Shown here in pieces: positions 55,679 through 58,444 of a stretch of 62,240 bases of DNA. Every line of letters starts with the position of its first letter. Positions within the stretch are counted from its first letter, which is position 1. The notes under the pieces are model-generated. The model had not been told where the DNA came from and made no database searches. It was given only the letters and a program-made list of their open reading frames with translations. The position numbers were made by a program, and so were the translations under genes. Source of the DNA: an uncultured Candidatus Saccharibacteria bacterium (GTDB taxonomy: Bacteria > Patescibacteriota > Minisyncoccia > Phycocordibacterales > UBA9973); assembly GCA_964397435.1 (NCBI GenBank), contig CAYNHU010000003.1:29731-91970 (forward strand), read 5' to 3'.

Positions 55679-58444
55679 ATGGAAAACTACCCAAACATCC
55701 CTGAAAAATTCTTGAAACCGTATGATCCGGGGAGTGTTGAATCTGCTATGTACAAGCGCTGGGAAGACAGCGGCTTTTTTAATCCTGACAACTGTGTAAA
55801 AGCAGGTGTAACTACTCCTGATGCAAAATCATTTACTATCATGATGCCTCCCCCAAACGTGACAGGCGTACTTCACATGGGACATGCAATGATGCTCACA
55901 CTCGAAGATGTCATGATTCGTTTCAAACGCATGCAGGGCTATAAAACACTCTGGCTTCCAGGAACTGATCACGCAGCTATCGCTACTCAGTCAAAAGTTG
56001 AAAAAGAAATTCAGAAAAAGGAGGGCAAATCACGTCACGACCTCGGCCGTGAAGAACTTTTGAAGCGCGTTCAGGAATTTGCACAAAACAGTCATGACAC
56101 TATCGTCTCACAAGTCAAAGTCATGGGCGCTTCGTGTGACTGGTCACGTGAAGCATTTACACTCGATGCAACTCGCAATCGTGCGGTAAACGCTATGTTT
56201 AAAAAAATGTACGATGATGGTTTGATCTATCGCGGTCATCGCATTGTGAACTGGGATCCAAAAGGACAGACAACTATTGCTGACGACGAAATTGTCTACG
56301 AGGAACGCAAAGCAAAACTCTACACATTTAAATACTCAAAAGATTTCCCTATCACAATCTCAACTACTCGTCCTGAAACAAAAGTTGGCGATACTGCAGT
56401 TGCGGTTCATCCAAATGATCCTCGCTACAAAGAATTCATCGGCAAAGAATATGATGCTGTCTTTTGTGGTGTTCCAATTCATGTAAAAATCATCGCTGAT
56501 GAATCTGTAGAGCAAGAATTTGGTACTGGTGCACTCGGTGTTACTCCGGCTCACAGTATGACTGACTGGGAAATTGCTGATCGTCACAACCTCCCTCGCC
56601 CACAAGTTATTAATGAATACGCAAAAATGACTGTCGGCGGAGAAAATCTCCTCGGCAAGAAAACAACTGAAGCCCGCGAAGTAGTCGTGGCATGGCTTCG
56701 CGATGAAGGTTTGCTCGAAAAAGAAGAAGAGGTAAACCAAAATATTTCTACTGCTGAACGAACGGGCGGTATCGTTGAACCACTTCCAAAACTCCAGTGG
56801 TTCGTTGACGTGAACAAAGAATTTGAATTACCTCACTCAAATCTGACAGGCATTTCAAGCGGCACAAAAACAACACTCAAACAAATCATGCGCACAACAG
56901 TTGAGAGTGGTCAGATCAAAATCATGCCTGACTACTTCAACAAGACGTACTTCCACTGGATCGACAACCTTCGTGACTGGTGTATCTCACGACAGATCTG
57001 GTACGGACATCGTGTGCCGGTATGGTACGACAAGGAAAATAATCTACATCTTCCAAAAAAGATTACTCTTTTGCTTGCTCGACATGGAGAAAGTGCGGCA
57101 AACCGCGATAACGTATTTGCAGGTGGTGGATTGGATAGCCCCCTTACTGAACGTGGTGAACAACAAGCAAAAGAACTTGGCGAAAACGTAAAAAATATAA
57201 CACTCGCTGGCATCATCTCTTCAGGAATGATCCGCGGAAAAGAAACTGCTCGCATTGCAGCAGAAACAATCGGTTTTGATACTGCAAAAATAATTGAAAT
57301 TCCTGAATTGCACGAAGTTGTTTCAGAACGTGATGGTAAACCAAAAACTGAAGAGTGGCCAACTCCCAGTTCATTGGTACGCGCAGGTCGCGGAGAAACA
57401 ACTGAACAAATAACTGAGCGCGCAGAAACTGTCATCAAAAAAATTGAAGCGCTTCCAGAAGGAACATACCTTGTTTGCGCGCACAATGCATTCAATTCAT
57501 GCTTACAGGCGCACATCATGGGACTCCGTGGTGAAAAAATCATTGACCACTGGGAAAAAATCGGAATCCGTGAAAATGGATCATATTTTGAAGTAACTCT
57601 CATGGTAAATCCAGAGGGTGATCTTAAACAAGACGAAGACACGCTCGACACATGGTTCTCTTCTGCACTCTGGACATTCTCAACACTTGGCTGGCCTGAC
57701 AAAACAAAAGACCTCGAGGTCTTTCATCCAACAGACGTGCTCGAAACAGGTTACGAAATCCTCTTCTTCTGGGTTGCTCGTATGATTCTCATGACAGGTT
57801 ACGGCCTCGGTGAAATTCCATTCCACACAGTCTATCTCCACGGTACTGTTCGTGACGGTCAGGGACGCAAAATGTCGAAGTCACTCGGCAACGGTATTGA
57901 TCCACTCGATATTGCTCAAAAATACGGCGCAGATGCTGGCCGTATGGCACTTGTTGTTGGAACTGCTGCAGGAACTGATTCAAAGATTTCTGAAGATAAA
58001 ATCAAGGGTTACAAAAACTTTGCAAACAAGTTGTGGAATATCACTCGCTTCATTCTCTCTTCAACAGAAAACGTAGCGCTCGATCCAGCATTTACAGCAT
58101 GGACAGAAACTGACGCAAAGATTCATGATGAATTCACTGCATTCAAAGCTGAAATCACTAAAGAATTCGAAGAATATAAGTTCCATCTTGTATCAGAAAA
58201 ACTTTATCAGTACGCATGGCACACGCTTGCTGATGTATTACTCGAAGAAAGTAAAAAAATATTTGCTGAAGGAAACGATGCAGCCAAAGCTTCGCGCGCG
58301 CAGTTACTCTTGCACACACTCTATGATCTCTTGAAACTGCTCCACCCACTCATGCCATTTGTCACCGAAGAAATCTGGAGTTCACTCCCTGAAAATGACG
58401 GTCGACTTTTAATGGTAACCAAGTGGCCATCACATGAATCCTAA
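55679..58444 (+). CDS. valS: valine--tRNA ligase carrying an internal histidine-phosphatase-like domain
   Basis: Contains [15 protein letters not shown] (HIGH, residue 66), the editing region, [17 protein letters not shown], an insert of about 195 aa with RHGES and AHN motifs, [12 protein letters not shown], KMSKS (residues 731-735) and a C-terminal anticodon-binding/coiled region. Confidence 0.93.
   Translation: [921 protein letters not shown]

Follow-up and report, generated by a model that had tools for sequence, protein, structure and literature searches.

The valS gene discussed here encodes a valyl-tRNA synthetase (ValRS) with a histidine phosphatase domain nested in its catalytic core. 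The gene lies in a stretch of 62,240 nucleotides, hereafter the window, on contig CAYNHU010000003.1 (assembly GCA_964397435.1, positions 29,731 to 91,970 of the forward strand) from an uncultured Candidatus Saccharibacteria bacterium of the GTDB lineage Patescibacteriota, Minisyncoccia. The reading frame is unbroken over 921 codons, with no stop codon and no frameshift, and the product passes the cut-offs of two ValRS equivalog models of NCBIfam (NF004349, 888.5 bits against 704; TIGR00422, 824.1 against 612.1). Pfam splits the tRNA-synt_1 match into two stretches with His_Phos_1 between them and also detects Anticodon_1. The editing domain of connective peptide 1 (CP1; PF13603 match at residues 270-315) and the HIGH, KMSKS and anticodon domains stand in the canonical order, and all class I motifs are invariant across the ValRS core alignment. 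A first reading of the letters alone, referred to as the original prediction, had already placed HMGH (residue 66), the editing domain, and KMSKS (residues 731-735) in order.

The C-terminal coiled-coil tRNA-binding arm (PF10458) has no match in the window ValRS in the Pfam scan. The Paceibacteria-type relatives, which measure about 730 residues minus the insert, are also without the arm as judged by length, and more distant insert-bearing ValRS (P0242, P0274, P0390) retain it. The missing arm is a lineage trait and no bar to membership in the ValRS family. The full-length AlphaFold2 (AF2) model has a predicted local distance difference test score (pLDDT) of 90.8 and a predicted template modelling score of 0.88, with most of the insert at pLDDT 85-98. 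Its best match in the Protein Data Bank (PDB) is the Thermus thermophilus ValRS 1GAX (E 1.8e-54), and none of the solved synthetases among the matches listed is annotated with a phosphatase domain. In four orthologs, the ratio of non-synonymous to synonymous substitution (omega) for the core is 0.04-0.06 in insert-bearing pairs compared with 0.056 in the insert-free pair; these values are rough because synonymous divergence (dS) is mostly saturated. Such rates indicate that the ValRS core is under the same constraint with or without the insert and that the host is a normal ValRS.

The phosphatase occupies the CP3 slot, which by homology with isoleucyl-tRNA synthetase (IleRS) joins CP2 to the latter half of the Rossmann fold. 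The WGHRIPAWY-type block of the window ValRS spans residues 434-450, DTLDTWFSS begins at residue 654, and the junctions read VWY/DKENN upstream and GDLK/QDED downstream, where the slash marks the border. The place first assigned to the insert, 57032-57625, is correct, and its extent requires a small adjustment: the alleles differ over a stretch that reaches one codon further on either side (Table 1). The closest insert-free relatives carry a conserved 18-residue hairpin in the slot (K-GEEIFTGLEAPSGEEW-K), and the same interval comprises ∼34 residues in gammaproteobacterial ValRS fragments, which agrees with the extra length originally noted relative to Escherichia coli ValRS. Both arms of the hairpin leave remnants in the insert-bearing proteins, DKENN... 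and ...NPEGDL, and thus the domain replaces the tip of the hairpin. The insert also has conserved linkers of its own where the chain enters it (LPKK...) and where the chain leaves it (...NGS...NPxGxxL).

Table 1. Features of valS and of its surroundings, in positions of the window
Feature	Position	Strand	Basis or remark
valS	55679..58444	+	921-aa valyl-tRNA synthetase with nested phosphatase domain; open reading frame (ORF), NF004349, Pfam, AF2
HMGH (HIGH) class I signature, residues 66-69	55874..55885	+	G68 and H69 invariant in core alignment
Upstream conserved flank, residues 431-450	56969..57028	+	Invariant motif; 5' boundary of exchangeable segment
Exchangeable CP3 cassette, residues 451-650 (200 residues)	57029..57628	+	Protein and DNA alignment against syntenic insert-free orthologs
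His_Phos_1 (PF00300), residues 464-621	57068..57541	+	Pfam, E 8.7e-28, 97.8 bits against cut-off 21.7
RHG motif, Arg468-His469-Gly470	57080..57088	+	CGA-CAT-GGA; invariant in 26/26 inserts; His469 is the predicted nucleophile
Arg519, second phosphate-binding Arg (S..R..T)	57233..57235	+	Invariant; aligns to PhoE Arg
Glu546, predicted general acid/base (L-x-E)	57314..57316	+	Invariant in 26 single-copy inserts; aligns to Glu of TIGAR LRER
His602, second catalytic His	57482..57484	+	Invariant in 26 inserts; aligns to PhoE second His
Downstream conserved flank, residues 651-662	57629..57664	+	3' boundary; second half of Rossmann fold starts there
KMSKS class I loop, residues 731-735	57869..57883	+	Invariant column in core alignment
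Anticodon-binding domain (PF08264), residues 812-918	58112..58432	+	Pfam
tRNA-Val(GAC) gene	50177..50251	+	5.4 kb upstream of valS
508-aa protein gene	51862..53388	+	N-terminal XRE-type helix-turn-helix (HTH_3/HTH_31) and EPSP_synthase-family (MurA-like) domain
Two small ORFs (107 and 154 aa)	54808..55592	-	Between tsaD and valS; no Pfam or PADLOC match
Antisense ORF (256 aa)	56932..57702	-	TTG start; overlaps the insert
PrsW-family intramembrane protease gene	58434..59186	+	Start overlapped 11 nt by the end of valS
HSP20 gene	59193..59696	+	

The insert is almost certainly a branch-1 histidine phosphatase domain, complete and in frame within the catalytic core as originally predicted. The PF00300 alignment covers profile positions 1-166 of 194 with an E value of 8.7e-28, and scanning the insert alone gives 3.4e-29. 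An AF2 model of the insert alone reaches pLDDT 95.3, and the full-length model is confident in the same region. The insert is predicted to fold as an independent alpha/beta lobe joined to the synthetase by a short two-stranded stalk. A Foldseek search with the insert-only model returns CobC, PhoE, PspA, and GpgP with a probability of 1.00 and TM scores of 0.70-0.75, CobC being the best fold neighbor. The nearest folds are all compact phosphatases of ∼200 residues, namely CobC, TIGAR, RosC, PhoE, the riboflavin-pathway phosphatase (HFP), PspA, and GpgP, and the sequence matches to the PDB are led by TIGAR, PhoE, and CobC. CobC, PhoE, TIGAR, PspA, GpgP, and RosC share with the insert the fold, the RHG-Arg-Glu-His set, and a similar size (∼185-200 residues). 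They are free-standing or terminally fused, whereas the window domain is nested with its own linkers.

The original prediction described the domain as mutase-like and proposed that a phosphoglycerate mutase had been economised into an essential protein of a reduced genome. The likeness stands at the level of the superfamily, which the domain shares with the cofactor-dependent phosphoglycerate mutase (dPGM), and weak partial matches to dPGM models are present; genomes of the candidate phyla radiation (CPR) are also small. As a mutase the assignment does not stand. The dPGM models remain far below their NCBIfam cut-offs (TIGR01258, 26.9 bits against 81.7; NF038349, 49.1 against 225), and most mutase-model matches span just the N-terminal 45-70 residues of the insert. 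The motif that follows the second catalytic histidine is of the HGNSLR type in dPGM, and the insert reads HNAFN instead. The PspA equivalog is likewise under its cut-off, and true phosphoglycerate mutase or CobC membership is rejected on the missed cut-offs. Together with the nearest folds, these scores place the insert among phosphatases of the CobC/PhoE/TIGAR/PspA kind rather than among mutases. A moonlighting glycolytic enzyme is also difficult to reconcile with arrays of two to four copies and with sister species whose ValRS is 96-97% identical and yet without the domain, a patchiness unexpected for core glycolysis. This explanation is very improbable.

The catalytic residues, which were correctly identified at the outset, are conserved well beyond the rest of the insert. 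Alignment to PhoE matches the RHG motif, the second arginine, and the second histidine, and alignment to TIGAR matches the RHG motif, the second arginine, and the glutamate. Thr523 is also invariant across the 26 inserts, and the G-E motif (Glu573) is nearly so. The inserts are mostly just 24-38% identical between subtypes despite these fixed residues, and the omega of the insert is ∼0.08-0.25 in four orthologs, a rough estimate given the saturated dS. No copy examined in any host lacks the arginine or the histidine of the RHG motif, and the glycine is missing from P0002 alone (RHA). Every single-copy insert, whether at one of three ValRS sites, in IleRS, or in TsaD, retains the full catalytic set. 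Substitutions of the glutamate by alanine and of the second histidine by asparagine are confined to proteins that also hold an intact copy; the degenerate copies are the CP3 copy of P0244/P0389, in which histidine is replaced by asparagine, and the first copy of P0243. This pattern of substitution suggests that selection maintains catalysis and not bulk, and the insert is very probably catalytically active. By the mechanism of the family, His469 would attack a phosphomonoester to form a phospho-histidine intermediate that is then hydrolysed, Arg468, Arg519, and His602 would hold the phosphate, and Glu546 would protonate the leaving group.

A catalytically irrelevant filler, such as a decaying neutral insertion, has the slot itself in its favor, which accepts an 18-residue hairpin, zinc knuckles, and segments of 43 and 98 residues that are unrelated to one another. 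Invariant catalytic residues in 26 inserts, an omega below 0.25, and decay that is limited to redundant copies speak against it. The related concern of an assembly artefact or chimeric join is countered by a continuous frame, the lack of a compositional break, and dozens of independent contigs. Recurrence, invariant catalytic residues, and decay in redundant copies alone effectively refute both versions, which are left with a negligible probability.

The distribution of the insert was assessed in a full-protein search, in which PF00300 is found at the same position in 26 of the 120 closest ValRS clusters, with protein lengths of ∼902-935 residues. All 120 clusters belong to Patescibacteria, with source names that include Nomurabacteria, Pacebacteria/Paceibacterota, and Minisyncoccia. 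The insert-bearing sequences were assembled separately on dozens of contigs from JGI, ENA, NCBI, and Logan; cluster P0124 alone is present on nine contigs from several samples. An assembly chimera, against which the original prediction had advised a check, is excluded by the recurrence of the architecture in 26 clusters and many samples. The fusion is also present in at least five GTDB species-representative genomes (L006-L010), a count that is too low for the number of species because the GTDB scan used an alignment of type A inserts only. No description of a phosphatase in ValRS was found in the searchable literature, and a 2026 survey of domain insertions names synthetases solely as hosts of editing domains. 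The original prediction knew of no described aminoacyl-tRNA synthetase of this kind, which holds for the literature searched and not for the sequence record: P0132, from a 2015 metagenome-assembled genome (MAG) of Nomurabacteria (GW2011 series), is labelled just 'Valine-tRNA ligase'. The architecture is apparently undescribed, though present unremarked in public MAG proteomes.

Lineage-specific domains in the CP loops of synthetases are an already known kind of variation. The CP3 topology varies among species, with a zinc knuckle in T. thermophilus IleRS and a helical form in Staphylococcus aureus (PMC7191050). The cassette occupies the same slot of class Ia synthetases, between the WxISRxxxWG linker and the second half of the Rossmann fold. 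The known CP3 variants are small and non-catalytic, whereas the cassette of the window is a complete enzyme of an unrelated superfamily. Other fillers of CP3 in close relatives are CxxC...CxxC zinc knuckles and the 43- and 98-residue segments (P0189, P0204, P0196, P0140, P0236); no Pfam family matches the 43-residue filler or the 98-residue one, which occurs in P0236. In P0170 and P0185, the phosphatase domain is itself nested within a zinc knuckle.

The CP1 editing domain provides a precedent for a hydrolytic domain nested in the same Rossmann fold. CP1 is an ancient and universal domain whose substrate is the product of its own enzyme, whereas the cassette is present or absent among near-identical orthologs. 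A class Ia synthetase with an extra unrelated catalytic domain is curated as NF040702 (ileS_w_GNAT), in which the extra domain is an N-acetyltransferase; the window protein matches the IleRS-like part alone (159.5 bits against a cut-off of 1999). Fusion of a CobC-like phosphatase to a nucleic-acid enzyme is represented by the Rv2228c-type RNase H/acid phosphatase (NF005567), whose phosphatase part the insert matches with 45.8 bits, far under the cut-off of 326. This protein is an end-to-end fusion with an unrelated partner.

The original prediction regarded the domain as a stable insertion, and the comparison of orthologs speaks otherwise. Syntenic orthologs with 96-97% identical cores differ in its presence, and the phylogeny of the inserts is decoupled from that of the cores. 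In a neighbor-joining tree built on 693 columns of the core, genes with and without the insert are mixed at the tips. The cores of P0127, which has the insert, and P0136, which does not, are 96.1% identical, and those of P0128 (insert) and P0152 (none) are 97.1% identical. The core of the window protein is 90.9% identical to the insert-free P0125 and 89.2% identical to P0122, which carries the insert; the corresponding dS values are 0.92 and 1.83, and the nearest relative of the window gene by dS, too, is thus an insert-free one. Neighborhoods were compared for the P0127/P0136 pair and for the clade of the window. P0127 and P0136 share the order LTD-TrwB-small ORF-ValRS-PrsW-HSP20, and the window, P0122-P0124, P0125, and P0126 share TsaD...ValRS-PrsW-HSP20-GDH wherever the contigs reach. 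Paralogy behind the pairs with and without insert is rejected on these identical neighborhoods. The difference is a clean indel, with DNA identity on either side of 88-91% (80-90% for the pair of the window).

Over 325 pairs of insert-bearing proteins, the similarity of two cores does not predict that of their inserts (Spearman 0.016, p 0.78). P0130 and P0139 are 73.5% identical in the core and ∼80% in the insert, while P0148 and P0182 are 83% identical in the core and ∼37% in the insert; P0133 and P0192, sisters by core at 88.8% and 49% identical in the insert, belong to different insert clades. The insert of the window is of 'type A' (IPELHE...PEGTY...), which is found in three separate core clades. 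Trustworthy tree conflicts are limited to the type A clade and the tip-level pairs that differ in presence. In sliding windows, the flanks track the core phylogeny up to the borders of the cassette, and the hairpin alone groups the two insert-free alleles. Since the hairpin is homologous across the family, deletion could not regenerate it, which points to the exchange of alleles as cassettes. Gain, loss, and exchange of the CP3 insert in the manner of a cassette are likely. In such a process, short-hairpin, diverged phosphatase, and zinc-knuckle alleles would displace one another in the CP3 of class Ia synthetases of Patescibacteria.

A sporadic presence at one precise site raises the question of a selfish in-frame element that spreads into permissive loops of essential genes and whose catalysis serves its own spread. 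Inteins and Rickettsia palindromic elements (RPE) are in-frame selfish insertions of this kind in essential genes. Like them, the cassette is sporadic among close relatives, lies beside ultra-conserved motifs of essential genes, and has a history that conflicts with that of the host gene; several hosts and sites, tandem amplification, and an N-terminal linker shared with the TsaD insert add to the resemblance. Unlike them, it has no splicing residues, no Hint or endonuclease domain, and no palindromic DNA, and it would persist, folded as an enzyme, in the mature protein. A Pfam scan of the protein finds no Hint, intein, LAGLIDADG, or homing-endonuclease domain, and an intein or homing element is rejected on this result and on the lack of splicing residues at the junctions. 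Repeat-flanked mobile DNA of the RPE type or of the miniature inverted-repeat transposable element type is rejected as well: around the insert the only flanking repeats are chance matches of 10-22 nt, there are no terminal repeats, direct or inverted, and the 62-kb window holds neither near-identical copies nor a second His_Phos copy. GC content and composition show no break across the insert, and a foreign composition is rejected. The absence of any stop, frameshift, flanking repeat, intein, or homing endonuclease was stated in the original prediction and is borne out in each case. The inserts are also highly diverged rather than near-identical recent copies, their metabolic-type active site is strictly conserved, and we know of no mechanism that ties a histidine phosphatase to DNA mobility. 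A selfish element is improbable.

The same module is found in other places. An insert-only exhaustive search against 1.8 billion cluster representatives recovers its near relatives in ValRS from other lineages, where the C-terminal arm is retained (P0242, P0274), and at two further ValRS sites, one in CP2 after QWFxxVNKxF (P0244/P0389, P0241) and one after STLGWP (P0019/P0390). Multi-copy ValRS, with two to four or more copies, are P0241, P0243, and P0244; P0241 has at least four, of which one lies in CP2 and three or more form a tandem array in CP3. IleRS carries one or two copies in CP3 (L079, with 1173 residues from a Paceibacterota genome; L085; P0280). A nested module is present in the TsaD protein P0297 and in a second TsaD cluster, P0391, which is 75% identical and encoded on a 48.6-kb contig. 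Nesting in TsaD is rare (two of 120 TsaD homologs), and the N-terminal linker of the TsaD insert, NLHKKIHLIRHGQS, is shared with the ValRS insert. Local transfer of the cassette out of valS into the adjacent tsaD is unsupported, as the P0391 fusion is not beside valS; the genes upstream of this fusion are two adjacent HIT-family genes (DcpS_C/HIT) and a NUDIX gene (L090:4656-5499, minus strand). Free-standing relatives of ∼180 residues and tandem-only relatives of ∼420 residues are numerous.

The surroundings of some free-standing relatives are recurrent. In L045 (3513-4166), L047 (3495-4130), and L027 (2862-4142), ParB is followed by one free-standing His_Phos gene, or by a tandem pair in L027, which a long gene for a Rel/SpoT (p)ppGpp synthetase-hydrolase (HD_4, RelA_SpoT, and TGS) faces tail-to-tail. 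The three genomes form one clade (Rel ∼72% identical), and the adjacency to Rel therefore counts as a single evolutionary observation. In L019 (3492-5405) and L065 (3501-5601), the gene for seryl-tRNA synthetase (SerRS) has a free-standing His_Phos gene immediately upstream on the same strand, and the two lineages are unrelated (SerRS 41% identical); a PspA-type phosphoserine phosphatase that feeds SerRS is a possible explanation of the pair. In three Thermoplasmata archaea (L030, L033, L036), a free-standing His_Phos gene (3501-3944) and, on the other strand, a gene for a class Ia synthetase lie ∼1.7 kb apart; this synthetase is 26-30% identical to the flanks of the window ValRS. P0001 (352 residues, on an ENA contig of 5863 bp) joins a ValRS fragment with the C-terminal part of an insert to a TrpRS-like tail (PF00579) after KMSKSLGN and is probably an assembly chimera joined at this shared class I motif.

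On balance, the insert is best read as an accessory CP3 phosphatase, a compact histidine phosphatase nested in ValRS as an exchangeable cassette, and its substrate is slightly more likely to be a small molecule than tRNA or the synthetase. The domain would be a phosphomonoesterase for some soluble phosphorylated compound, made together with the essential translation enzyme that carries it and not needed for the charging of valine. Related cassettes are nested also at the two further ValRS sites, in the CP3 of IleRS, and in TsaD. A soluble substrate is favored because the nearest structures are metabolite phosphatases, because the net charge of the inserts is mildly negative (-2.9 on average and -5 in the insert of the window), and because sister species live without the domain. 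Arrays of two to four copies make a precise positioning of the active site unlikely and favor a soluble substrate as well.

The alternative is a repair activity directed at tRNA or the synthetase, in which the domain strips a (pyro)phosphate from the 3'-CCA end, as left by toxSAS toxins, or a phosphate from the synthetase, as left by a HipA/HipT-type kinase, and so provides on-site immunity. Phosphorylated CCA ends made by toxSAS toxins are a real lesion that blocks charging (PMC11559606), which lends this alternative a known target. An arms race would account for the rapid turnover and exchange of cassettes, and patchy presence, fast divergence outside the catalytic residues, and horizontal exchange are in the style of conflict genes. 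The hosts act on tRNA throughout, with at least five independent nesting events, and some free-standing relatives adjoin rel, in three genomes of a single clade, or serS, in two lineages. The tandem arrays of two to four or more copies clash with a precisely placed active site, and the inserts are acidic, with no basic surface charge that would signal RNA binding found on them. All nearest structures are small-molecule phosphatases, and to our knowledge no histidine phosphatase acts on RNA ends. A known defence protein is rejected, as the insert has no match among the PADLOC-DB defence families at E ≤ 0.01. The host list is biased, given that the hosts were found by their similarity to a ValRS insert. 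Repair is the less likely role, although it deserves consideration. Removal of phosphate from tRNA ends and hydrolysis of a phosphorylated regulator, both put forward as speculation in the original prediction, may each apply. Its broader form, in which phosphatase cassettes colonise the tRNA-handling enzymes of CPR bacteria and strip inhibitory (pyro)phosphate from tRNA 3' ends or the synthetase as an exchangeable anti-toxin counter-measure, is more doubtful still.

Several points weigh against the reading of an accessory phosphatase with a soluble substrate. The fused hosts among the relatives checked (ValRS, IleRS, and TsaD) all act on tRNA. The CP2-CP3 linker of yeast IleRS (453-ARDWNVSRNRYWG-465) shapes the pocket for the tRNA CCA end and reveromycin A (PMC7955072), and the homologous motif of the window protein ends eight residues before the cassette, a proximity that also speaks for repair. 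An anchor point at the CCA pocket and hosts that are tRNA enzymes hint at functional coupling over hitch-hiking. A purely autonomous enzyme would evolve more easily as a separate gene or a terminal fusion, which accords poorly with repeated internal nesting. The insert reaches no equivalog: it scores 59.2 against 261 for the GpmB model NF002901, and 66.6 against 162.9 and 56.8 against 250 for the CobC models TIGR03162 and NF011580. Accordingly, a substrate is not transferable to it from CobC, PhoE, TIGAR, PspA, GpgP, or RosC. With regard to exchange, homologous recombination across the two ultra-conserved flanking motifs would swap the alleles, a step drawn from phylogenetic conflict in neighbor-joining trees of short, divergent sequences, and the sliding windows detect no recombination tracts that reach into the flanks.

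The genes around valS vary in their conservation. Every relative examined, whether insert-bearing or insert-free, has the order ValRS-PrsW-HSP20. The slot between tsaD and valS, occupied in the window by two small ORFs, holds a 331-residue ORF in L004, ORFs of 143 and 183 residues in L087, one of 159 residues in L088, and an N6_N4 DNA methyltransferase in L086; these differences among relatives indicate that a variable hotspot adjoins valS. The fusion of a helix-turn-helix with an EPSP_synthase-family domain encoded further upstream is also found in L004. The tRNA-Val(GAC) gene ends in ...GCGCA/CCT, and its CCA is therefore not fully genome-encoded. The ORF antisense to the insert is taken to arise from the purine-rich composition of the coding strand and not to be a gene.

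Aminoacyl-tRNA synthetases are among the most conserved proteins; their active-site fold seldom acquires a new catalytic domain, and the known cases, the editing domains, are of ancient origin and fixed. What seems new in the present case is a foreign, apparently active enzyme that behaves as an exchangeable cassette across ValRS, IleRS, and TsaD. Both synthetases, ValRS and IleRS, serve as phylogenetic markers, and the exchange of a cassette within the gene can distort alignments as well as trees. Annotation pipelines assign just the name 'valine--tRNA ligase', which hides the second enzyme. If the substrate is a metabolite, the domain would be an accessory enzyme stored inside an essential gene, and the CP3 loop would be a natural plug-in site that is useful for the engineering of synthetases. 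With tRNA or the synthetase as its target, the phosphatase would represent a new layer of translation quality control or of resistance to toxins.

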